From NCBI RefSeq assembly GCF_000253055.1, contig NC_016070.1:420001-452000 (forward strand): a stretch of DNA of 32,000 nt, written 5' to 3'. This DNA comes from Thermoproteus tenax Kra 1 (GTDB taxonomy: Archaea > Thermoproteota > Thermoprotei > Thermoproteales > Thermoproteaceae). The translations under genes were made by a program, and so were the position numbers. Positions 20,191 through 32,000 of this stretch are shown piece after piece; the first letter of the stretch is position 1, and each line of letters starts with the position of its first letter. Under the pieces are notes generated by a model. That model was not told where the DNA came from. It saw only the letters and a program-made list of their open reading frames with translations, and did not search any database.

Positions 20191-22830
20191 ATGCCTTATG
20201 TAAAGGCAGAGGCGAAGCTCTCAGTAGGCCCCCGCACCTATAAGATCTACAAGCTGAGGGCTCTGGAGGCCGAGGGATATGACGTATCTAGACTGCCTTA
20301 CAGCATAAGGGTGCTTCTGGAGAACGTGCTCCGCAACTACGACGGAAGAGATATCGCCCAAGAGCATATCGATGCGCTGGCTAGGTGGAACCCCAAGTCG
20401 CCGGAGGGAGAGGTGGCGCTGAAGGTGACGAGGGTCGTTATGCAAGACTACACAGGGGTTCCAGCCGTAGTGGACTTGGCCACTATGAGGGAGATAGCCG
20501 CTAAATCGGGGCGGGACCCCAGTGTAGTCAACCCCAGAGTCCCCGTGGACCTTATCATAGACCACTCAGTCCAAGTGGACCACTGGGCATCCCCCCAGGC
20601 CCTCTCTTTGAACATCCGGCTCGAGATAGAGAGGAATAGAGAGAGGTATGTCTTCCTGAAGTGGGCCCAGAGCGCCTTCAAGAACCTCCGCGTATTCCCG
20701 CCGGGCACCGGCATAATACACCAGGTAAACTTGGAGTATTTGGCCAGAGTGGTGTGGACTGAGGGCGATACGGCCTTCTTCGAGACTCTCGTGGGGATGG
20801 ACAGCCACACTACGATGATAAACGGCCTCGGTGTCGTGGGGTGGGGAGTAGGGGGCGTAGAGGCCGAGGCAGCGATGCTCGGAGAGCCCATAACCATAAG
20901 AGTGCCGAGGGTGGTGGGAGTGAGGCTCTACGGCGAGCCGCGCCCCGGCGTCACTGCAACCGATATAGTCCTGGCGGTGACCGAGGCGTTGAGGAAGGTG
21001 AACGTAGTGGACGCGTTCGTAGAGTTCTTCGGCGAGGGAGTAAGGAAGCTCTCGGTGCCGGACAGAGCCACGATAGCCAACATGGCGCCCGAGTATGGAT
21101 CCACGGTGGGGCTGTTCCCCGTCGACGGCAACACTCTGGACTATCTGTCTGCCACCGGAAGACCTGAGGAGTTGATAGCCTTGGTCAAGAAATACTACGA
21201 GGAGCAGGGCGTGTTCAGAGGAGTTGAGGACGCCGAGTACAGCCAGGTGGTGGACTTCGATTTGTCTGCAGTGGAGCCGTCCGCCGCCGGTCCCACCCTC
21301 CCGTGGCAGAGGAGGTCGCTCCAAGACGTCCCCAAAAGCTTCGTCGAGTTCCTGGCACAGAGGAAGAAGAGGGACAAGAGGAAGGCCGTAGAGATAGAGA
21401 TCGGAGGGAGGAGGACGGAGTTCGGAGACGGCGATGTGGCCATAGCGGCTATAACGAGCTGCACCAACACGTCAAATCCCTATCTTTTGGTCGCGGCGGG
21501 GCTAGTGGCGAAGAAGGCCGTGGAGGCCGGCTTGTCTGTGCCGCCGTACGTCAAGACGAGCTTCGCGCCCGGCTCCCGCGCCGTGGAGGAGATCCTGAGG
21601 AGGGCAGGCTTGATGCCATATTTAGAGAAGCTGGGCTTCCACGTAGTCGCCTATGGGTGCACCACGTGTATAGGGAACTCAGGCCCTCTGCCGCAGCCCG
21701 TCTCCAAGGCCATAAAGGAGTACGACATAATGGCAGCCGCAGTGTTGTCGGGCAACCGCAACTTCGAGGGCAGAGTACACCCGGAGATAAGAGCCGCCTA
21801 CCTCGCCTCGCCTCCTCTCGTGGTGGCCTACGCCCTGGCCGGATCGGTGTTGAGGGATCTATCGAGGGAGCCCCTCGGCGTAGGGAAAGAGGGCAAGCCC
21901 GTCTATCTGAAGGACGTCTGGCCCAGCCCAGAGGAGGTCAACGAAGTCGTGGCGAGGGCCATGGATCCCAAGATCTATATAGAGAAGTATTCAAAGATAG
22001 GCGAGCTAGTCCCCGAGTGGAGCGAGCTGAAGGTTCCATCGGGGAACCTCTATCAGTGGAGATCCGACGACACCTATATACAGCCATCGCCGTTGTTCGA
22101 GGGGAGGCCGACCACCGGCGACATCATCAACGCAAGGCCGTTGTTAATCTTGGGCGACAGCATCACCACAGACCACATATCGCCCGCCGGCTCCATCCCG
22201 CCGGACAGCCCTGCGGGGAGGTACTTGGCCGAAAGAGGGGTGCAACAGAGGGACTTCAACACGTTCGGCGCCAGGAGGGGCAATTGGGAGGTTATGGTCA
22301 GAGGCACTTTCTGGAGCAAGGGCTATATCAACAAAATCGAGGGCGGCCTCGAGGGGGGATACACTGTAAAGTACCCAGAGGGGCTCAAGACCACAGTATA
22401 TGAGGCCGCCATGATGTACAAGAGGGAGGGCGTGCCCGTGGTCGTCGTTGCCGGCAAAAACTATGGCGCCGGCTCCAGCAGAGATTGGGCGGCCAAGGGG
22501 CCGAAGCTCTTGGGAGTCAAGGCCGTGATAGCAGAGAGCTTTGAAAGAATACACAGGTCTAATTTGACGATGGTGGGAATTGTGCCTATACAGCTGCCCC
22601 AAGGCGTGACAGTGGACAGCCTAAACCTCAAGGGCCCCGAGACCATCGACATAATAGGACTGGAGGATCTGGCTCCGGGGAAGGAGCTAACGTTGAGGAT
22701 ACACAGGCCAGACGGCAGGACCGACGAGCTGAGGGCCAAGGCCGCTGTCTATACGTGGGCTGAGGTCGAGTATATAAAGCACGGCGGAATTCTGCCGTAT
22801 GTGTTAAGGAAATTACTCGAAAAGAGTTGA
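20191..22830 (+). CDS. acnA: Aconitate hydratase (AcnA/IRP type)
   Basis: The 879-aa ORF carries Fe-S ligand contexts (ITSCTNTSNP, GCTTCIGNSG) plus the DSHTTM and RGNWEVMVRGTF motifs. Confidence 0.95.
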   Translation: MPYVKAEAKLSVGPRTYKIYKLRALEAEGYDVSRLPYSIRVLLENVLRNYDGRDIAQEHIDALARWNPKSPEGEVALKVTRVVMQDYTGVPAVVDLATMREIAAKSGRDPSVVNPRVPVDLIIDHSVQVDHWASPQALSLNIRLEIERNRERYVFLKWAQSAFKNLRVFPPGTGIIHQVNLEYLARVVWTEGDTAFFETLVGMDSHTTMINGLGVVGWGVGGVEAEAAMLGEPITIRVPRVVGVRLYGEPRPGVTATDIVLAVTEALRKVNVVDAFVEFFGEGVRKLSVPDRATIANMAPEYGSTVGLFPVDGNTLDYLSATGRPEELIALVKKYYEEQGVFRGVEDAEYSQVVDFDLSAVEPSAAGPTLPWQRRSLQDVPKSFVEFLAQRKKRDKRKAVEIEIGGRRTEFGDGDVAIAAITSCTNTSNPYLLVAAGLVAKKAVEAGLSVPPYVKTSFAPGSRAVEEILRRAGLMPYLEKLGFHVVAYGCTTCIGNSGPLPQPVSKAIKEYDIMAAAVLSGNRNFEGRVHPEIRAAYLASPPLVVAYALAGSVLRDLSREPLGVGKEGKPVYLKDVWPSPEEVNEVVARAMDPKIYIEKYSKIGELVPEWSELKVPSGNLYQWRSDDTYIQPSPLFEGRPTTGDIINARPLLILGDSITTDHISPAGSIPPDSPAGRYLAERGVQQRDFNTFGARRGNWEVMVRGTFWSKGYINKIEGGLEGGYTVKYPEGLKTTVYEAAMMYKREGVPVVVVAGKNYGAGSSRDWAAKGPKLLGVKAVIAESFERIHRSNLTMVGIVPIQLPQGVTVDSLNLKGPETIDIIGLEDLAPGKELTLRIHRPDGRTDELRAKAAVYTWAEVEYIKHGGILPYVLRKLLEKS

Positions 22831-22869
22831 TTTTGTGAAACACATAAAAGGCAGTCCCCGTCCTTGACC

Positions 22870-23550
22870 ATGAGGCTTCCGATTCTGATAATAAACTTCA
22901 AGGCATACGGCGAGGCGGCCGGCAAAAGGGCCGTTGAGTTAGCCAAGGCGGCCGAGAGAGCTGCCAGAGAGCTCGGCGTAAATATCGTTGTGGCTCCCAA
23001 CCACTTGGAGCTGGGCTTGGTCTCTCAGTCCGTCGACATACCTGTCTATGCCCAGGGCGCCGATGTAGAGGCAGGAGGAGCCCACACTGCACATGTGTCG
23101 CTGGAGAACATAAAGGAGGCGGGCGGCTCAGGCGTGATATTGAACCACAGCGAGGCTCCTCTGAAGCTAAATGATCTAGCCAGACTGGTGGCCAAGGCCA
23201 AGTCCCTAGGCCTCGATGTAGTCGTGTGTGCTCCAGACCCGAGGACCAGCCTGGCGGCGGCCGCCCTGGGGCCTCACGCAGTGGCCGTGGAGCCTCCGGA
23301 GCTCATCGGCACCGGCAGAGCGGTATCGAGATACAAGCCAGAGGCCATTGTTGAGACGGTGGGCCTAGTGTCGAGGCACTTCCCCGAGGTGTCCGTGATA
23401 ACGGGCGCAGGCATAGAGTCGGGGGACGACGTGGCCGCCGCGCTGAGGCTTGGGACCAGGGGGGTCCTGTTGGCAAGCGCCGCCGTGAAGGCGAAGGACC
23501 CCTACGCCAAAATAGTTGAGCTCGCCAAGCCTCTGTCAGAGCTCCGCTGA
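22870..23550 (+). CDS. tpiA: Triosephosphate isomerase (short archaeal type)
   Basis: The N-terminal [20 protein letters not shown] and EPPELIGTG motifs are present. At about 226 aa the length is typical of archaeal TIM. ATG 22870 is preferred over TTG 22864. Confidence 0.92.
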
Positions 23551-24723
23551 CTCCAACTGCCTCAGGACATAGCGCCTTATCTCGTCCTCGCTTGGGATAC
23601 TCTCCACTATCTTGCCGTCCTCCATGTACTTCTTGATCAAGGGCCTCCCCTCGGAGCCATCGGCGCATTTGGGCGGCGGCTCGCCCCACGGCCTCACAAC
23701 CCTCTTGAGGCCGCCGCAGTCGTAGAGCTGTTTGAAGCCGGGGAGCTTCCCCCTCTTGGTTATGGGAGTCCACGCTCCTCCCACCTTCACCTCAACTATG
23801 TCCATAGAGATGTCCACGCTGGGCGGGAAGGCTATGGATGTGCCCACGCCGAATGCATCCACTATATCGGCCAGTTCCGCCACGGCCTCCTCGTCCAGCC
23901 CTCCGCTTACGACGATCTTCACGTCCCTCCGCCCCATCAGCTCCAACGTCCAACGGACCTCCTCCACTATCCTCCTCATGTTGCCCCTCCTGCTCCCCGG
24001 CGTGTCCAAACGGACTCCCCAGAGCCTTTCGCCCAACCTCTTGACCGCGAGGACGGCCTCCTCCCTTTCGTCGAGGAAAGTGTCAGCGAGCACAATGCGG
24101 GGGACTTGGGGAGGGGCCGCGGCGTCGAACCAGACCCAAGCCTCGGTGTGGTCCCCCTTGAGCGCTCTGAAGATTATCATGAGGGCGTGGGGCATCGTGC
24201 CGACCGCCTGCTTGCCCATAAGTTCTGCGCCCAACACGCCCGCCACGCCGTCGCAGCCTCCAATGTACGCCGCTCTGTCGGCCATTGGCTGGACGGCCGG
24301 GTGGAGGACGCGCGCGCCGAAGAATAGACAGCTCTTGTCGCCGGCAGCCTTCTTAACTCTCGCCGCCTTAGTGGCAATGCTCGAGTAATGTCTCAGAATG
24401 CCCAAAACTGTGGTCTCGAACACAGCGAAGTCCACGTATCTGCCCTCTATTACCATGAGAGGTTGGTTCTCGCCGAAAAGGGTCCCCTCGGGGAGGGCGT
24501 AGACAGTAACGGGCTTGCCCTCGAGGGCGTAGAGCGCCTCCTTCAGACCGGCGAAGACGGCCCACTTATATCCCTCCGGCAGAGATGCAACGTGGAACTC
24601 GGCCCTCACCACCGCGTCGTCGAGCCCGGCGGCCTTCAGCGTCTCGACGGTCCTGATAAAATAGATGTCTGTGGCACGCCCGGAGATTATATCGTCGGCC
24701 GTAGCTATGTGGAACTTCGCCAT
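23536..24723 (-). CDS. pncB: Nicotinate phosphoribosyltransferase (archaeal NAPRTase family)
   Basis: The 395-aa ORF has an N-terminus ([22 protein letters not shown]) and internal [20 protein letters not shown] and GGLDEE patterns typical of the type II PRTase family. Confidence 0.8.
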
Positions 24724-24836
24724 AGCCTAGAACAGAAGGGAGTTTTTGAGCATTAGTTTCCTCGCTCATTTAACTCCACAATTACAAAATTATAATTATA
24801 ATTATTGCCAATTGAACAATCTATATAAATATTATG

Positions 24837-24867
24837 TATCAATTAAAATAAAAATAATATATTGATA
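24837..24867. promoter_or_regulatory. 7-bp inverted repeat (tatcaat N17 attgata) overlapping the presumed citrate synthase TATA region
   Basis: Seen directly: tatcaat at 24837-24843 and attgata at 24861-24867 flank aaaataaaaataat. The gltA ATG is at 24875. Confidence 0.3.
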
Positions 24868-24874
24868 TACGCCT

Positions 24875-25999
24875 ATGCAGTACAGCCCAGGTTTAGAGGG
24901 AATAATAGTAAAAGAAAGTAAAATTTGTTTAATAGACGTCGAGAACTCCAAGATATACTACAGAGGCTACGACATAGAGGAGCTCGCCGATAAATCGACC
25001 TTTGAGGAGACGGCATATCTGTTGATCTACGGCCAACTTCCGAGGGCCTCCGAGCTCGATGCGTTCAAGGAGAGGCTCGCCTCGCTGAGGCGGCCCCCCG
25101 AGCATGTGGTGAAGTTGCTCGGCCTGCTCCCCAAAAGCGCCGAGCCTATCGACGTCCTCAGAACCGCCGTCTCGGCCATGGGCATGGGCAGAAATCTGTC
25201 GGACAGATCCCCGGAGGCGGAGCTGGAGAGAGGCTTGGAGGTGATCGCGTCTATGCCCTTCATTGCCGCCAACTGGGATAGAACGAGGCGCGGGCTTGAG
25301 ATCGCGGATCCGCAGGCCGAGGGCCATGCCGAGTATTTCCTCAGAGCGCTCAAGGGGGATGCGTCCCCCAGACAGATCAAGGCGATGGACGTCATGTTGA
25401 TAATCTACGCCGAGCACGGCATGAACAACAGCGCCTTCACAGCTGTGACAGTGGCCTCGACGCTCTCCGATATGTACTCAGTGATCTCGGCAGCTATAGC
25501 GAGCCTCAAGGGCCCGCTCCACGGAGGGGCCAATATAGATGCGGCCAAAATGATAGAGGAGGTGGGAGAGCCGGGGAGAGTCCAGAGGTGGGTGGACGAG
25601 GCGCTCGCGGCGGGCAAGAGAATACCTGGCTTCGGGCACAGGCTCTACAAGAGGGGGCCCGACCCGCGCCTGAGGGTTTTGAGGCGGCTGGCCCGCGAGC
25701 TCGCCGAGGAGGCCGGCGACTATAAATACTACGAGATCGCTGAGAGGCTCGAGGAGTACGTCCACTCTAGGCTTTCTCACAAGGGGATCTACGCAAACAC
25801 TGACCTTTACGCCGCGGTCATCTTCAAATATCTGGGCCTTCCCACAGACCTCAATCTGCCGGCCTTCGCCATGTCGCGCGCAGCCGGCTGGGTGGCGCAC
25901 GCAGTGGAGTATAGAAGGAACAACAGATTGATACGCCCCACCGAGAGATACATTGGACCAGTCGGCCTTAGGTATATCCCTCTGGAGGCCCGGGGCTGA
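24875..25999 (+). CDS. gltA: Citrate synthase
   Basis: The catalytic GFGHRLYK motif, HGGANI, and EHGMNNSAF are present. At 374 aa the length is typical of archaeal citrate synthase. Confidence 0.93.
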   Translation: MQYSPGLEGIIVKESKICLIDVENSKIYYRGYDIEELADKSTFEETAYLLIYGQLPRASELDAFKERLASLRRPPEHVVKLLGLLPKSAEPIDVLRTAVSAMGMGRNLSDRSPEAELERGLEVIASMPFIAANWDRTRRGLEIADPQAEGHAEYFLRALKGDASPRQIKAMDVMLIIYAEHGMNNSAFTAVTVASTLSDMYSVISAAIASLKGPLHGGANIDAAKMIEEVGEPGRVQRWVDEALAAGKRIPGFGHRLYKRGPDPRLRVLRRLARELAEEAGDYKYYEIAERLEEYVHSRLSHKGIYANTDLYAAVIFKYLGLPTDLNLPAFAMSRAAGWVAHAVEYRRNNRLIRPTERYIGPVGLRYIPLEARG

Positions 26000-26274: not shown

Positions 26275-27765
26275 TTACCCCAAGGCTGTAATATTGTAGA
26301 CCCTCAGCAGAGCCGCCGTGCTGTATCCAACGTAGGCCGGTTGGGCCGAGTAGAAACAGCCGTACCTCGCCAATATGTTCCCATAGACATCGCGCAGTAT
26401 TATATCGCCCCAGTCGTTGAGCGGCCTCAGCTCGACCCACGCGGACGCAGGGTAGTTGCCCAGATAGACCGAGGTTGAGCCACAGAGGGCATAGAAGTTA
26501 TCGCCCGATATGTTTACGCCGAAAATCGGCGTCAAGCTCTGGCTGAATACGGCGTAGGTGCCGGCCCCTGTGAAGTTGGATATATAGGTCAAGGCCCCCG
26601 ATATGAGGGATCTATAGAAGACCACATAGGGAGAGCCCTGAAGCACTAGGGCGCTACTGGTCTGAGCGGCCGACTGGCCGTAGACGCTCCAGTTTGAGGG
26701 CAGAGGGCACTGGGTCTCCGTCAAATTTACGTTCTTCCACTCGATTATGGTATTGCCGTTGGGCGAGTAGGTGACTAGGGCGAAGCCCACGATATACCCC
26801 GTCGAATACACCTGCGGTATACTGAGCGGAAGCCACTGTTTCTTTTTGTTTGTTATATTGAGATATATGGAAATGTAGGGAACACTGTAGCCATAGATAT
26901 ATTTGGAGAGGTTTGCAGGGCTTCTACCGTTCACTGAGTAGTAGTATATAACCTCTAGATACGGCTTTGGGTCGTTTGGACTGCTACTAATGAAGAAGTT
27001 GACTTGCAGATAGTCGTTGCCTGTAAGCGATGCTTGCAGATAGTAGTATACCGTGAAGCTGGAGCTGGCCGGTATAGGGCTACCCAGCCATTGGGTCACG
27101 TTGACGAAGCCTGCCGCCCATCCGTTCTTGCCGTCGGTATACAATATCCCGCTTGTGACATTTGCCTCCGATTTGCCCGTTGTAATAAGGTAGAGCCACG
27201 GGCTGGAGCTGTTGAATGAAGAAATGGAGTATGAGGGGCACGTGAAGACGTAGCTGTACAAGCGCGACATCGGCAACGCCGTGAAGTTCACCAACTGGAC
27301 AGCGCTGATCCCGCCGTTTTGGAACACGGCTTGGGCGAGCACTGAGTACCTCTGCGAGGAGATCGATGTCCATGTCACCGTGGCTGGAGTCGGCACAGGC
27401 GGGCCGGAGCTCTGGTAGCTAGAGATCTCGACCGAGCCGTCCAGCGATATGGCGTAGTTAGCTGTCCCTATCTGGGACAGTCTCTGGAGGCTGGCCGACC
27501 AGCCGGTGAACTTGGGCACAAAGACGCCGACCTCATAGTACTCCGGCCAGCCGGGAACAAATTTCATTATATAGTAAGTCACATTGTAGCCGCCGGCCGG
27601 CGCCCAGTAGGCCCTCGCCAGAGGATATAGGGAAAGGTTCCCGTCCTTCATGACCGGGGGGAGCGTCGCGTTTATGGAGTACTGGGTCTCGTTGAAGAAA
27701 GCCAGAGAGGCGAAGACGGCCGTTATAGCTAAGGCAAAGAACGCTGCCAGAGCTAGAGCCCTCAC
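26275..27765 (-). CDS. Large secreted, heavily sequon-decorated beta-rich protein of unknown function (operon gene 6; shares its N-terminal segment with gene 1)
   Basis: The signal peptide MRALALAAFFALAITAVFASLA is followed by FFNETQYSINATLPPVMK. I counted about 15 N-x-S/T sequons by hand. The composition is Tyr/Ser/Asn-rich and there is no TM after the signal. The ATG lies 2 nt after the upstream stop. Confidence 0.8.
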   Translation of the reverse strand: MRALALAAFFALAITAVFASLAFFNETQYSINATLPPVMKDGNLSLYPLARAYWAPAGGYNVTYYIMKFVPGWPEYYEVGVFVPKFTGWSASLQRLSQIGTANYAISLDGSVEISSYQSSGPPVPTPATVTWTSISSQRYSVLAQAVFQNGGISAVQLVNFTALPMSRLYSYVFTCPSYSISSFNSSSPWLYLITTGKSEANVTSGILYTDGKNGWAAGFVNVTQWLGSPIPASSSFTVYYYLQASLTGNDYLQVNFFISSSPNDPKPYLEVIYYYSVNGRSPANLSKYIYGYSVPYISIYLNITNKKKQWLPLSIPQVYSTGYIVGFALVTYSPNGNTIIEWKNVNLTETQCPLPSNWSVYGQSAAQTSSALVLQGSPYVVFYRSLISGALTYISNFTGAGTYAVFSQSLTPIFGVNISGDNFYALCGSTSVYLGNYPASAWVELRPLNDWGDIILRDVYGNILARYGCFYSAQPAYVGYSTAALLRVYNITALG

Positions 27766-27767
27766 GG

Positions 27768-28481
27768 CTAAGACGCCATCAGATCGAGCTTCTCTCTATC
27801 CTCTAGGGAGAGCGATGAAGGATCCACCGATGAGAGGATCACTTCAGCCGCGGCGCGCGCGTTGACGAAGTAGTAAGTGAAGGGGCCCACCTTGATAGAC
27901 TTCAGCTTACCCTCGCGCTCTAGCACATAGACGTGCCACTGCACAGCGCCCCAGCTCTTCCCCACCGCCTTGGCTATCTGCGAGAGCGTCGCAGCGCCCA
28001 TTTTCTCTACCGCCGCTATGATCTGCCTCCTGATGGGGTCGTCGGCAACAGCTCTTTTGACCCTCCCGATCGCGGGCAACCCCAGCGCTCCCAATGCGCC
28101 GAGCTTCTTGGCCAGAGGCCCCAACGCCACTGTTATCCACTCCCTCCTGTTAGTGGCCACATAGCTGGCGGCCCCCGCGGTCGAGGCTACGGCGAGGGCC
28201 ACGACAGCCGGGGGCAGGCCACCGGGCGCCGGGGGCGGAGGCGGCGGAGGACTTCCTTCAACTAAGACGTAGCCCCTGACTTCAACTGTCCTGTTGGTGG
28301 GGTTTTTACAGATGATAACCGCCGAGCCGGACGCAACGAAGGGGACGTTTGGCGTACAGTACGGCGGCAGATGCGGCGTTACTGTATAGTTACCGTAGGG
28401 TAGCGCTAAGTTTATGGGATACACGGTGAAAGGCAAGAGCATCACAGCAACAGTTATATTGAACACATAAAAGTTGAACAA
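27768..28481 (-). CDS. Membrane-tethered winged-helix (ArsR/MarR-like wHTH) protein with an extracellular N-terminal domain and a poly-Pro stalk (operon gene 5)
   Basis: From N to C: a hydrophobic N-terminus; a roughly 50-aa Cys-containing segment with sequons; PPPPPPPAPGGLPP (P-run encoded at 28230-28250); the TM AVVALAVASTAGAASYVA followed by NRRE (positive-inside). The C-terminal part reads DDPIRRQIIAAVEKMGAATLSQIAKAVGKSWGAVQWHVYVLEREGKLKSIKVGPFTYYFVN, a classic wHTH pattern. The start is TTG 28481 or ATG 28442. Confidence 0.75.
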   Translation of the reverse strand: MFNFYVFNITVAVMLLPFTVYPINLALPYGNYTVTPHLPPYCTPNVPFVASGSAVIICKNPTNRTVEVRGYVLVEGSPPPPPPPAPGGLPPAVVALAVASTAGAASYVATNRREWITVALGPLAKKLGALGALGLPAIGRVKRAVADDPIRRQIIAAVEKMGAATLSQIAKAVGKSWGAVQWHVYVLEREGKLKSIKVGPFTYYFVNARAAAEVILSSVDPSSLSLEDREKLDLMAS

Positions 28482-28506: not shown

Positions 28507-28857
28507 TCAGAAGATGAAGGGGTCTGGAAGCCCCAAGAGCTTGGCCAACCCCAATAGAGCTGTAAGGTAGAGCCAAGCGGCTGCTGCGAAGACGTATGCG
28601 GGCCACCACCGCTTATACATGCCCCACCAACTGAAGCCTATGGAGAGGGCCAAGAGGAACAACGAGAGGAGGTAAGTGAAACGCAGATGGAAGAGGGGCC
28701 AGAGCTGGGCCAATACCCCGAGCGCAAAGCCGGCGACGAACGAGGCTATTAGGCCTGCTCCTCTGATGTAGTCGATCTGAGCGCCGAAATAGAGCGCGAC
28801 AAGTGCCGGGAGCAGAGCCGTGAACCCACCGGCTAGAGCGGCCAAAAGGGGGTCCAT
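28507..28857 (-). CDS. Small integral membrane protein, about 4 TM (operon gene 4)
   Basis: I read four hydrophobic helices by eye. ATG 28857 overlaps the upstream stop by 1 nt (TGATG). The longer track ORF starts at 28905. Confidence 0.65.
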   Translation of the reverse strand: MDPLLAALAGGFTALLPALVALYFGAQIDYIRGAGLIASFVAGFALGVLAQLWPLFHLRFTYLLSLFLLALSIGFSWWGMYKRWWPAYVFAAAAWLYLTALLGLAKLLGLPDPFIF

Positions 28858-29258
28858 CAGAAGAGCCAGAGCGTGTAGGAATTTAACAACTGCGCCGCCG
28901 TCCACAGAACGAAGAGGTAGACGAAGGGAGCACAGGCGATCAGGGCTAGGTCCAGATCTCGTCTCGAGGGCTTCAGCGCTATGGTCACCACCAACAGTTG
29001 GCTCGCCACTGTAAGCGCCAGCGCTATAAGGGCCGAGAGTCTCTCGTACACTTGAGGCGCGCCCGATGCTATCATGAGGGCGTCGTAGACGTTGCCCGCG
29101 GTGGAGGCCACGATGAAGAAGAGGACGGACGCCCTCTCCTGAAAGAGGGCCTTGGGATCTGCCCCCTCGTGTGAGGCCACTATCTGCTCCATCCAGAGTC
29201 TGGCGACTCCCAACGCCATCCCGAAGACGGCGCCTGCCAAGAGAGGCGTCAGCTCCAT
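28857..29258 (-). CDS. Small integral membrane protein, about 4 TM (operon gene 3)
   Basis: The 133-aa ORF has four hydrophobic segments. Its start overlaps the upstream gene end by 10 nt. Confidence 0.65.
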   Translation of the reverse strand: MELTPLLAGAVFGMALGVARLWMEQIVASHEGADPKALFQERASVLFFIVASTAGNVYDALMIASGAPQVYERLSALIALALTVASQLLVVTIALKPSRRDLDLALIACAPFVYLFVLWTAAQLLNSYTLWLF

Positions 29259-30499
29259 GGCTTCAACGTCTCTACAGAGACCGAGAGGACGCTAGGTGGA
29301 CCGCCCCATCTGCCGGTGGCGTCGGCCACTATAACGAAGGGGCCCACATAGCCCGCAGGTAGGCCGAACGGCAGAGGCGAGTCACGGGCGTAGGGCTGGA
29401 GTGGGCCAAAGTAGTAGTACGTCGTGCCGTTATAGCGGAAGAGCCACGCGTTGCCGGATTTGCCCGCCGGCGGCTGGGAGCCGAAGAGGACGAGGTCGGT
29501 CGACAGGAGAGGCGACTGAGTAAACTCCGCGTAATAATAGATCAGATACATGTCCACCGGCGTGTTCACCGTATAGAGGTAGTATCTGCTGACTGCCGTA
29601 GTCCCGTTGGCGGTCGATATAGCCGCTATAGCTCCTCGCTCGCTCCAACCCTCTTTCCACTCCGGAGTCGACAGCACGTAGCCGTAGTTCTCTGGGACTC
29701 CCACGATGCCTATGTCGTTCTGGGCTGCAGCTGACGAGGCGTCTAGAGGTTCGGCAGCTGTATAGGTGGGGGGAATACACGGCGCCGGATAGATGTAGAG
29801 CGTTGTAGGCCCCGACATGTTCACTAGGAATGTGTACCTCTCCACGGGCCCTCCAGGGTGCGGAAGTAGGGCCAGCTCTCCGCCCAAAACGAGCCCCTCC
29901 CTCAACGGAGCGTAGTCGATTACCTGCACAGTCGCCAGGGCGCCGGCCTGCTCGACCACACAGCCTGGGAATGGCAGTCTGCCGATAGGGATCGACCAGG
30001 CGTACAGCTCGCCGCTCTCCCCGATCTGCAGTAGCTGCCAGCCTGTGCCGTTCAGCTTGAGGACTACCCTCTGTGACACATCGGGATACCAGTCGATCTC
30101 CTTGACTTTGACCCACACAGTCTGGAGCCAGCGCATATAGGTAAAATTGACATAGCAAGTCCCTTGGAAGGCCGGCGGCACGACGAGGTTCAAAGTATAC
30201 GTCCCGGGGCCCGATAAATAGGGCGGTATACCCAGGGAACAGTTCGTCGCTATATACATATAGGGCCCGTTGACCGCAATCGAGAGGGCGTCTGGGTAGC
30301 TCCACGAGCCGTACGGCGAGCTGTACAAGTAGAGCGTCCCATCTCTGATCGCCATGCCGGCGCCCGCGACGTTCAAGCTAACGGAGGCTGGCTCAGTCGC
30401 CTTGAACATGCTCCCTCCAGTGGAGGGGGCGGCTATGTAGATGGAGAAGACTAAGAGGGGGAAGAAGGTGATAAAAAAGGCCTTTAGTTTAGCCCTCAC
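29249..30499 (-). CDS. Secreted beta-rich protein of unknown function (operon gene 2)
   Basis: The N-terminal signal/anchor is MRAKLKAFFITFFPLLVFSIYIAA. I counted about 6 sequons. The composition is Tyr/Gly/Pro-rich and there is no further TM. The GTG start overlaps the stop of gene 1. Confidence 0.75.
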   Translation of the reverse strand: MRAKLKAFFITFFPLLVFSIYIAAPSTGGSMFKATEPASVSLNVAGAGMAIRDGTLYLYSSPYGSWSYPDALSIAVNGPYMYIATNCSLGIPPYLSGPGTYTLNLVVPPAFQGTCYVNFTYMRWLQTVWVKVKEIDWYPDVSQRVVLKLNGTGWQLLQIGESGELYAWSIPIGRLPFPGCVVEQAGALATVQVIDYAPLREGLVLGGELALLPHPGGPVERYTFLVNMSGPTTLYIYPAPCIPPTYTAAEPLDASSAAAQNDIGIVGVPENYGYVLSTPEWKEGWSERGAIAAISTANGTTAVSRYYLYTVNTPVDMYLIYYYAEFTQSPLLSTDLVLFGSQPPAGKSGNAWLFRYNGTTYYYFGPLQPYARDSPLPFGLPAGYVGPFVIVADATGRWGGPPSVLSVSVETLKPWS

Positions 30500-31071
30500 T
30501 GAGGCGACATCACTATGTTGATCTGGTAAGTGGCCAATACGGTGTTACCGTTGGCGTACGTAGCGGGCAGAGTTGGATCTACGTCTATATATGCGCCGAG
30601 CGTGATACACTGGCCATAGCCGATAGTGCCCAAGTTGGCCGTGCTCTGGACTACGCTGGTGCCTTTGAACTCGACGTACTGTTGAGGATTGGCGCTGTTG
30701 TACACCCTGAAGTCGTCCACATAGCTCTCAAGGCCGGTCGAGCCAACTGTGCCGACGGCTTGTAGAGTAACTTGTATATTGCCCTGGTAGTACTTGTTGC
30801 AGATCAACAACAAGTTGCTGTAGTTCGTGGGATCGCCCGTGAAGCCTATGATGGATATCCTGGTTATGTTTACGCCGTTGCTGTAGTAGTAGCTCACTTT
30901 GGCGAACTGTCCATTGGCGGTTTGTGTGTCCAATCCAGGGTACTTCATGGCGGGAGGCAGAGTGGCGTTTATGACCCAATAGGATACATTAGTGAACGTT
31001 ATCGTCGCCATCGTCAACGCGGCCAGTCCCAGTGCAGCCAGCGCCAGTAGGCCCAGCTTTCCCTTTTCCAT
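30496..31071 (-). CDS. Small secreted beta-rich protein, candidate major subunit of a surface structure (operon gene 1)
   Basis: The signal peptide MEKGKLGLLALAALGLAALTMA is followed by TITFTNVSYWVINATLPPAMK. The mature protein is about 170 aa with alternating beta-like sequence, 2 Cys and 4 sequons. The track start is 31092, but the TATA-like aatatatat abuts it, so ATG 31071 (leaderless) is more likely. Confidence 0.75.
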   Translation of the reverse strand: MEKGKLGLLALAALGLAALTMATITFTNVSYWVINATLPPAMKYPGLDTQTANGQFAKVSYYYSNGVNITRISIIGFTGDPTNYSNLLLICNKYYQGNIQVTLQAVGTVGSTGLESYVDDFRVYNSANPQQYVEFKGTSVVQSTANLGTIGYGQCITLGAYIDVDPTLPATYANGNTVLATYQINIVMSPQ

Positions 31072-31092
31072 GTCCTTCCGCAAGAAGCCCAT

Positions 31093-31101
31093 ATATATTC
31101 T
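31093..31101 (-). promoter_or_regulatory. TATA-like box for the six-gene operon
   Basis: The minus strand reads aatatatat, about 25 nt upstream of ATG 31071. It lies in the 100-bp gap after the moeA stop. Confidence 0.4.
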
Positions 31102-31193
31102 TTACGTACCGCTTTTCGGCCGAGCCCCGACTGCTCGTCTGCCCGCAACAGAGGTACAGTCGATCCATACAGCGATGCAGCCGTAGGCGCCGG

Positions 31194-32000
31194 CTATTCC
31201 TCCACTGGCCTCAACAGCTGCACCTCGACCTCCTCCCCCTCGTCGTAGCCCTCTCTATTCTCGGGGACTATTAGGAGTCCGTTCCCTCTGGTCAATGTGG
31301 ACAACACGCCGCTTCCGGTCACAGCCAGAGGCTCAATATACGTCCTGTCCCCGGCCCTATACACGCGGACTCTGGCGTACGTCCTCACGTTTATAGGGGT
31401 GGTCACGCGCCGGGTCAGAACTCCTCTCACAGTGGGGACTGGGTCGGGCCTCCCGCCCACCATTTTGAGGAGCGCAGGCCTTGCGAAGATCTCGAAGCCC
31501 ACTACGGCGGCCACGGGGAAGCCCGAGAGCACCACGACGGGCCTCCCGCGGACTACGGCGGCTCCGTTGGGTCTGCCGGGCCTCGCGGCTATCCCCCTCA
31601 CGTAGAACTCGGCGAGCGCCGAGACGGCCTTGTGCGTTGCATCCGGGTCCCCCACCGAGGCTCCCCCAGTGGTTAAGACTATGTCGTACGTCGAGATAGC
31701 CCTCTCTAGGGCCGACTCGATGGCCTCCACGTCGTCGGGCAGTAGGCCGAGGTATGCCGGCTCTGCCCCCGCCTCCTTCAACAGGCCCCATAGAGCGAAG
31801 CGCGTTGAGTTTATCACTTTGCCAGGCCTGGGCCCTTCCTCCACCTCGACCAGCTCGTCCCCAGTGGACAATATGGCGGCTCTGACCTCGTACACGGGCA
31901 CCCGCGATATGCCGACAGACGCCAACACTCCCAAGTCCCATGGCCTCAGCCTGGTCCCGGCCCTCAATATGCGCTCCCCCCTCGCCACGTCCTCGCCCCT
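31194..32000 (-). CDS. moeA: Molybdopterin molybdenumtransferase MoeA (3' part; the gene continues beyond the right window edge)
   Basis: MoeA motifs are present: STGDELV, PGKVINS, and LTTGGASVGDPD. The frame stays open upstream of the GTG at 31988 to position 32000 (RGEDVARGERIL...), so the N-terminal domain is off-window. Confidence 0.88.
   Translation of the reverse strand, partial: RGEDVARGERILRAGTRLRPWDLGVLASVGISRVPVYEVRAAILSTGDELVEVEEGPRPGKVINSTRFALWGLLKEAGAEPAYLGLLPDDVEAIESALERAISTYDIVLTTGGASVGDPDATHKAVSALAEFYVRGIAARPGRPNGAAVVRGRPVVVLSGFPVAAVVGFEIFARPALLKMVGGRPDPVPTVRGVLTRRVTTPINVRTYARVRVYRAGDRTYIEPLAVTGSGVLSTLTRGNGLLIVPENREGYDEGEEVEVQLLRPVEE

Follow-up and report, generated by a model that had tools for sequence, protein, structure and literature searches.

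An AbpA-type donor strand in a large co-encoded protein points to a candidate end piece of the archaeal bundling pilus of Thermoproteus tenax

The archaeal bundling pilus of Pyrobaculum calidifontis consists of the subunit AbpA, whose structure is available as 7UEG (Wang et al. 2022, PMC9245690). Mature AbpA begins at T25, after the cut AMA↓TL (the arrow marks the cut here and below). Its N-terminal segment is a donor strand that lies in the groove of the adjacent subunit and supplies strand B of the jelly-roll, and N37 on this strand carries a glycan (PMC9245690). The operon contains, in this order, abpA (Pcal_0910), abpB (Pcal_0909), the genes of the membrane proteins Pcal_0908 and Pcal_0907, Pcal_0906, the gene of the winged-helix (wHTH) protein Pcal_0905, Pcal_0904 and Pcal_0903; Pcal_0908 is a 4-TM protein (four transmembrane segments) and Pcal_0906 is a GTPase that is not conserved (PMC9245690). 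No chaperone or usher was found, and AbpB was suggested as the strand donor purely from its TapA fold resemblance (PMC9245690). In Bacillus subtilis, the mature N-terminus of TapA is homologous to the donor strand of TasA; TapA starts the filament by donating this strand and, being unable to accept one in return, is confined to a filament end (Roske et al. 2023, PMC10151520). Here, we compare these systems with six tightly packed minus-strand genes that occupy the last 6 kb of a window of 32,000 nucleotides (nt) from Thermoproteus tenax Kra 1 (NC_016070.1, positions 420,001 to 452,000; coordinates below are those of the window). A sequence-only reading of this window had noticed that the first and sixth genes share a short segment behind their predicted signal peptides. 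We find that gene 1 is abpA, and that gene 6 (26275..27765, minus strand; 496 amino acids, aa), a member of the Pcal_0904 family, is the best candidate for a pilus end piece, be it starter, cap or tip adhesin.

Gene 1 (30496..31092, minus strand) encodes an archaeal bundling pilin with a TasA-like jelly-roll. A phmmer search of the PDB sequences with its product gave one strong match, 7UEG chain A (7ueg_A, 'Pilin'; E=2.9e-66). The alignment of query residues 12-196 with chain residues 7-201 is near full length and covers the whole jelly-roll domain. By its sequence, gene 1 is therefore an AbpA orthologue and the predicted major pilin of an archaeal bundling pilus. T. tenax TMA↓TITFTNVSYWVINAT pairs with P. 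calidifontis AMA↓TLTFTNLTYWLINAT, TMA↓TITFTNVSYWVINATLPPAMKYPG matches AMA↓TLTFTNLTYWLINATLPPAMKYPG residue for residue, and the INAT Asn of T. tenax gene 1 is the counterpart of the glycosylated N37. As this residue-for-residue alignment extends over T25-K45 of 7UEG, the segment noticed in gene 1 (30943-30996) is the donor strand of a known pilin. It comprises the final 18 residues of the mature N-terminal donor strand T30-K50 (TITFTNVSYWVINATLPPAMK; 30943..31005, minus strand), numbered in the open reading frame (ORF) of 198 aa. For gene 1, the donor-strand role is already known biology.

The strand of T. tenax AbpA is preceded by a Sec signal peptide, M8-A29 (MEKGKLGLLALAALGLAALTMA; 31006..31071, minus strand), which is cut after an invariant Ala. 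Among 20 orthologues, A29, N35, W39, N42, A43 and T44 are invariant, and the position of A29 is that of the observed P. calidifontis cleavage site AMA↓T25. The claim that the segment directly follows the signal-peptide cut of gene 1 thus agrees with the start of mature AbpA in 7UEG. The motif lies inside the mature protein and not in the cleaved signal peptide, which the same reading had left as a way for its proposal to fail. The NCBI annotation starts gene 1 at M8 and gives 191 aa. An A/T-rich TATA-like box, AAAGAATATATAT, adjoins the first ATG (31092) of the gene 1 ORF (region 31071-31105, minus strand), and about 25 nt separate this box from the second ATG (31071) further downstream. This spacing fits a leaderless transcript as well as the annotation of 191 aa, and the second ATG is probably the true start.

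Next, we focused on the segment that genes 1 and 6 have in common. Retranslation yields FTNVSYWVINATLPPAMK for 30943-30996 and FFNETQYSINATLPPVMK for 27646-27699, both on the minus strand, and confirms 11 identities over 18 residues without a gap. The sequence-only reading could not align the remainder of the two proteins by eye, and whole-protein BLASTP likewise finds this stretch alone (12/23 identities, E=2e-4 in a single comparison). When profiles of 20 AbpA and 25 gene-6 orthologues are aligned, the match has a probability of 97.8% and E=7.6e-13. Within INATLPP, five of the seven identical residues are encoded by different synonymous codons in the two genes, which shows that the match has been maintained at the protein level and does not stem from a recent DNA copy or gene conversion. 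Both N-x-S/T sequons had been described as conserved in register. This holds for the second (NA[TS]), which is nearly invariant, but not for the first (NVS/NET), which the gene-6 family does not conserve as a sequon: its Asn is invariant, whereas the S/T at +2 is present in 18 of 46 distinct gene-6-family segments. No glycan has been reported at the equivalent Asn of AbpA (PMC9245690).

The motif is conserved among the orthologues of both genes. The form found in nearly all gene-6 homologues of full length is A↓x[LV]x[FY]xNxxx[WL]x[VI]NA[TS]L[PA]Px[SML]K, and that of the AbpA homologues is A↓T[VL]TFTNVTYW[LV][IV]NAT[LK]PPAMKY. The first invariant Asn of either family is preceded, at a distance of six residues, by an invariant Ala. 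In gene 6 this is Ala19, invariant in 25 orthologues. As its register equals that of the -1 Ala at the observed AbpA cleavage site, gene 6 is most likely cut at VFA19↓S20, three residues upstream of the ASLA↓F site that the sequence-only reading had favoured. A cut at this site would place the mature N-termini of AbpA and gene 6 in one register. The predicted Sec signal peptide of gene 6 would then span M1-A19 (27709..27765, minus strand). The predicted mature N-terminal extension, S20-K40 (SLAFFNETQYSINATLPPVMK; 27646..27708, minus strand), would be an AbpA-like strand according to the alignments and the profile comparison.

Conservation between the two families alternates along the strand. 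Counted from the cut, positions 2, 4, ..., 16 are conserved (V/L, F, N, T/V/A/S, W/L/F, I/V, A and L), with a mean BLOSUM score between families of 3.2, compared with 0.39 at positions 1, 3, ..., 11. Over positions 1-12, the permutation p-value for this alternation is 0.006. As the glycosylated, and hence exposed, Asn sits on the odd face, the conserved even face is probably the buried one that faces the groove. From the geometry of a beta-strand, the face common to AbpA and gene 6 is thus expected to point into the groove, and the alternation indicates strand residues that are important for groove binding.

To see how far the strand is distributed, we scanned all six-frame fragments of the window and 10 related genomic loci (2,509 fragments) with a hidden Markov model (HMM) of the strand. 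The only matches were AbpA, an AbpA paralogue and the gene-6 orthologues; the next best score was 11 bits. The paralogue, which is found in some Pyrobaculum loci, scored 30 bits though it was outside the training set, and AbpB was not matched in these fragments. An exhaustive HMMER search of 1.84 billion representative proteins with a 43-column strand profile (E<=1e-3) returned 30 representatives, all of them AbpA-like, AbpA-paralogue or gene-6-like sequences or their fragments. A word-indexed search with the same profile returned two gene-6 fragments and missed known members, so it was uninformative and the exhaustive search was used instead. As the motif is limited to AbpA-like and gene-6-like proteins, it does not reflect a general secretion or glycosylation context, a concern that had been raised for this segment. 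These searches point to the gene 6 family as the only accessory protein of the operon with an AbpA-type strand, AbpB having none.

Two metagenomic ORFs, P0227 (152 aa) and P0231 (84 aa), look like hybrids of gene 6 and AbpA. In one of them, a signal peptide, strand and N-domain start of the gene-6 type are joined to an AbpA C-terminus, while the other continues into an AbpA-type MKYAG linker. Either chimeric assembly or genuine recombination at the shared segment may account for them. A further protein, P0224 (302 aa), is an AbpA homologue with an extra beta-rich C-terminal domain of ~110 residues.

The gene 6 product is identical (100%) to a hypothetical protein of T. tenax, and searches of Pfam, NCBIfam and the PDB sequences gave no match for it. 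Its 93 homologues all come from Thermoproteus, Pyrobaculum or metagenomic contigs and include a P. calidifontis protein of 754 aa (P0079). The position of these genes downstream of the wHTH gene in related loci identifies the family as that of Pcal_0904, which Wang et al. mention once (PMC9245690); a full-text literature search found no further paper naming Pcal_0904. In the protein, the N-terminal strand is followed by a conserved beta-sandwich (about residues 38-175) and, after a middle part that varies, by a C-terminal beta domain that is again conserved. Most Pyrobaculum orthologues (710-760 aa) contain an insert of ~250 residues, which is missing from T. tenax gene 6 and from three closely related metagenomic sequences (496-507 aa). 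This insert contains DxDGDG-type motifs, and the Pfam search of 25 gene-6 orthologues gave nothing beyond sporadic FG-GAP matches within it, in two members.

A full-length AlphaFold2 model of gene 6, built with an alignment of 25 sequences, has a mean predicted local distance difference test score (pLDDT) of 88.7 and is all-beta from residue 50 onward. Its sole low-confidence stretch (pLDDT <50) is residues 25-39, the shared segment, and the model draws residues 2-34 as one helix. When residues 20-182 are modelled, a confident ten-strand sandwich results, with residues 20-35 left as coil (pLDDT<50) and not folded back. The published AlphaFold model of the AbpA monomer self-complements with its own strand (PMC9245690). 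Foldseek searches of the PDB with the whole gene 6 model returned beta-sandwiches of the carbohydrate-binding module (CBM), lectin and Vip3 C-terminal types, with low template modelling (TM) scores. The N-domain gave weak matches to many FimH lectin-domain entries and to the chaperone-usher pilins CfaB, CooA and AggA (E about 6e-4, TM 0.41-0.44, under the usual TM level of 0.5). Neither 7UEG nor TasA was returned for the full or the N-domain model, and TapA was outside the top 50 matches of either. The AlphaFold behaviour and the lack of Foldseek similarity to 7UEG suggest that gene 6 has no acceptor groove. If the signal peptide and strand are removed, the AbpA and gene-6 profiles still align in register, at E=0.024 and a probability of 2%. 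Given this value and the Foldseek results, we refrain from assigning a pilin domain to gene 6.

In the window, in eight of the 10 genome loci and in a divergent minimal locus, L011, gene 6 is located downstream of abpA; the locus L010 ends before the gene-6 position. L011 (158-4518, metagenomic) encodes an AbpA-like (195 aa), an AbpB-like (475 aa) and a gene-6-like protein (688 aa) in a row. It has no membrane-protein or wHTH genes, and its AbpB-like protein matches T. tenax AbpB at E=4e-4. In L011, the two strands share Ile for Phe at position 4, a Glu at position 9 and the loss of the NAT sequon. That they changed together is suggestive, but as this stems from a single lineage we give it little weight. 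L008 (2-3682), from a Pyrobaculum metagenome-assembled genome, has the order AbpA-like fragment, abpB, two membrane genes, wHTH gene and full abpA. Several Pyrobaculum loci contain a second AbpA paralogue (~33% identical) between abpA and abpB (L001 10668-11249; L003 7475-8074; L005 10661-11248), with the strand variant SVINVTYWYVNTTAPPVIKYVG. By analogy with TafE, this paralogue could be a minor pilin or adapter; the T. tenax operon does not contain it.

Judged from the sequence comparisons, the models and related systems, we think it likely, though far from certain, that gene 6 inserts its AbpA-type strand into the groove of an AbpA subunit and occupies one end of the filament. AbpA would be exported by Sec and its signal peptide cleaved, and the new N-terminus TITFTNVSYWVINATLPPAMK would enter the groove of a neighbouring AbpA as a beta-strand; such insertion between subunits has been shown for the P. 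calidifontis orthologue (PMC9245690). Gene 6 would also be exported by Sec and cut after Ala19, in the register of AbpA. Its freed extension S20-K40, probably glycosylated at N32, would dock into the empty groove of an AbpA subunit. As no AbpA-like fold can be detected in gene 6 and the strand stays unpacked in the AlphaFold models, gene 6 is probably unable to accept a strand. Without an acceptor groove, only the groove end of the filament would be open to it, and it would form a single terminal subunit there, one copy per filament. If the filament grows from its base, gene 6, as supplier of the first strand, would reach the distal tip and display its lectin/CBM-like beta-sandwich domains; with the opposite polarity it would be a cell-proximal terminator or anchor. 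The choice depends on filament polarity, and a starter at the distal tip is the most likely role. A donor-strand pilin with a tip or anchor protein was one of two settings that the sequence-only reading had named. Its AbpA half is borne out by cryo-electron microscopy of the orthologue (PMC9245690), and for gene 6 we infer the docking.

Several observations weigh against this proposal. Wang et al. describe an N-terminal transmembrane helix in Pcal_0904 (PMC9245690), which makes cleavage of gene 6 uncertain. The weak in-register similarity beyond the strand (E=0.024) leaves room for a diverged pilin domain, and the case for a missing acceptor groove consists solely of how AlphaFold behaves and of the missing Foldseek similarity to 7UEG. 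In L008, a full abpA stands where gene 6 would be expected, and the following 10 kb contain no gene 6. A permutation of partner and non-partner strands in 16 genomes gave no general co-variation (p=0.38, or p=0.9 without L011). We therefore reject such co-variation, with joint changes seen in L011 only, and even there the gene-6 strand is about equally similar to canonical AbpA strands and to its own partner.

Other explanations of the shared segment can be weighed with the same evidence. Taken by itself, the T. tenax pair might owe its resemblance to chance, as the stretch is short (18-23 residues) and the pairwise E is only 2e-4. The family-level data reject this and make it extremely improbable: the profile-profile comparison gives E=7.6e-13, both families keep the segment at an equal distance from the cleavage site, and among 1.84 billion representatives it is restricted to these two families. 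Alternatively, gene 6 could have arisen by duplication of abpA and addition of extra domains, its N-terminus being a remnant of common descent kept as an export or cleavage context, with no AbpA interaction. With the strand included, the profile alignment indeed continues in register as far as AbpA residue 118, and a weak match persists when the strand is left out (E=0.024). Moreover, tblastn with AbpA matches the starts of gene-6 orthologues over ~105-110 residues at two loci. However, the strand is far better conserved than the remaining N-domain, with invariant N, P and K and a preserved alternating face, whereas the globular part has diverged beyond reliable detection. A cleavage context alone needs no 20 residues downstream of the cut, and the different synonymous codons show that the peptide has been under selection for a long time. 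We therefore regard a remnant without function in the pilus as improbable.

The helix that AlphaFold draws over residues 2-34 would suit an uncleaved gene 6 that anchors the pilus base in the membrane, its adjacent strand capturing the most cell-proximal AbpA. Such an anchor has so far not been identified for the bundling pilus. However, the hydrophobic stretch of gene 6 is only ~16 residues long, and 17-19 residues in all precede the invariant Ala, few for a membrane-spanning segment. The small or aliphatic residue at -3 and the invariant Ala at -1 are in the exact register of the observed AbpA cleavage, and the helix has a pLDDT<50 over residues 25-39. A membrane anchor is thus quite unlikely. 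The segment could also serve mainly to be recognised by a processing or assembly factor that both proteins use, with gene 6 co-processed and secreted but not part of the pilus. This factor might be the oligosaccharyltransferase that modifies the NAT sequon, or it might be the operon's two small membrane proteins, which are conserved and have no assigned role. In line with this, the NATLPPxxK half of the segment is conserved on both faces and not at alternate residues alone, and the PPxxK linker behind the strand is invariant in both families. The AbpA segment is, however, a structural part of the finished filament (PMC9245690), and none of the six operon genes gave a peptidase, sortase or transferase signature in the Pfam and NCBIfam searches. 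The clients are limited to AbpA-like proteins and gene 6, and L011 retains both strands despite lacking the membrane-protein genes and the sequon. For a role mainly in recognition we therefore see a small chance. A dedicated sorting or processing signal of the SipW-cognate or sortase type, the second setting of the sequence-only reading, found no support and was rejected, although tagging might still be a second role of the segment. The segment stays in the mature AbpA filament, and the Pfam and NCBIfam searches of the six genes gave no peptidase or sortase signature.

If gene 6 is indeed a strand-donating end piece, it bears on how archaeal bundling pili start, stop and attach, and it is a possible target for locating filament ends and their polarity. 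A bolder version, which we offer tentatively and consider rather doubtful, is that the Pcal_0904 family and not AbpB is both the strand-donating starter and the distal tip adhesin, derived from an abpA duplication in which the groove of the pilin domain closed and lectin/CBM-like domains were added. If true, one protein would trigger pilus assembly in these archaea without chaperone or usher, and the Pcal_0904-family protein could target the pili of different cells to glycans.

The remaining operon genes all lie on the minus strand. Gene 2 (29249..30499) is abpB, the TapA-like protein of Wang et al., assigned by synteny with, and 32-48% identity to, the gene downstream of abpA in 10/10 loci. 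Genes 3 (28857..29258) and 4 (28507..28905) encode small membrane proteins that resemble Pcal_0908 and Pcal_0907, respectively, with synteny in 9/10 genome loci and no match in L004. As listed, their ORFs share 49 nt (28857-28905). Orthologues align with gene 4 from residues 17-20 onward, which makes a true start further downstream probable. Gene 5 (27768..28481) encodes a protein with a C-terminal winged helix, a Pcal_0905-like regulator by synteny and by a match of residues 148-193 to Pfam HTH_24 (E=2e-6). It has an N-terminal hydrophobic segment, a small Cys-containing ecto region, a run of eight prolines and a second hydrophobic segment ahead of the winged helix. In this layout, it resembles a membrane-spanning transcription regulator, possibly one that senses the cell surface. 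abpB, the two small membrane proteins, the wHTH protein and the Pcal_0904-like gene all accompany abpA, and their order agrees with the related loci. Housekeeping genes flank the operon (20191-25999; 31194-31988), as identified by reading translations: aconitase, triosephosphate isomerase, a nicotinate phosphoribosyltransferase-like gene and citrate synthase (convergent with gene 6) on one side, and a MoeA-like gene upstream. The surroundings show no sign of mobile elements and the GC content is even. Scans for bacterial-type promoters and terminators are uninformative for an archaeon.

The closest described system is the AbpA pilus of P. calidifontis, which shares with T. tenax the cleavage site, the donor strand, the three sequons that are glycosylated in 7UEG and the operon. 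The window matches the published operon gene for gene, minus the GTPase gene and the Pcal_0903-like gene after gene 6; it also comes from a different genus. In papers up to 2026 in the searchable literature, the TapA-like role is still given to AbpB and the strand of Pcal_0904 is not mentioned. The assignment of gene 6 is therefore apparently undescribed, and it is testable within a known kind of system. TapA, like gene 6, is an accessory protein in a pilin operon whose mature N-terminus resembles the strand of the major subunit. By the criteria for a TapA-type initiator or cap, gene 6 has a predicted mature N-terminus that is donor-strand-like and in register with the cleavage site, and it is co-encoded with the major subunit. 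Unlike TapA, it is much larger (496-760 aa in its family, with several beta domains) and has neither sequence nor fold similarity to TapA. Membership of the TapA family finds no Pfam, NCBIfam, PDB or top-50 Foldseek support, which makes gene 6 a functional analogue at most.

End subunits have also been proposed for other archaeal donor-strand pili. Saci_0405 of Sulfolobus threads is a proposed cap with an N-terminal strand and no acceptor site (PMC9715654). TafC of haloarchaeal Tat-fimbriae is a proposed tip and activator that combines a donor strand at its N-terminus with a lectin-like (laminin G) domain facing outward (PMC11821415). Both carry an N-terminal strand that fits the major pilin, as proposed here for gene 6. 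Both were put forward on the basis of modelling, and their families are unrelated to gene 6. TafC further differs by Tat export. Saci_0405 has no Sec signal and is pilin-sized, whereas no pilin-like character is detectable in the N-domain of gene 6. Tip adhesins of the FimH type are likewise multi-domain end subunits of donor-strand pili and match the N-domain of gene 6 weakly in Foldseek. However, FimH offers a groove for a strand and donates none, whereas gene 6 carries a strand and seems to lack a groove, which is the opposite polarity, and the chaperone and usher of chaperone-usher pili are not present with gene 6. We therefore rejected gene 6 as a FimH-like tip adhesin, as the lectin-domain resemblance is weak (TM 0.41-0.44) and an N-terminal extension is the opposite arrangement. 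Compared with these systems, the advance made here is incremental and lies inside a known assembly principle rather than defining a new one: a Pcal_0904-family protein that may occupy, in archaeal bundling pili, the place that TapA, TafC and Saci_0405 have been given in theirs.

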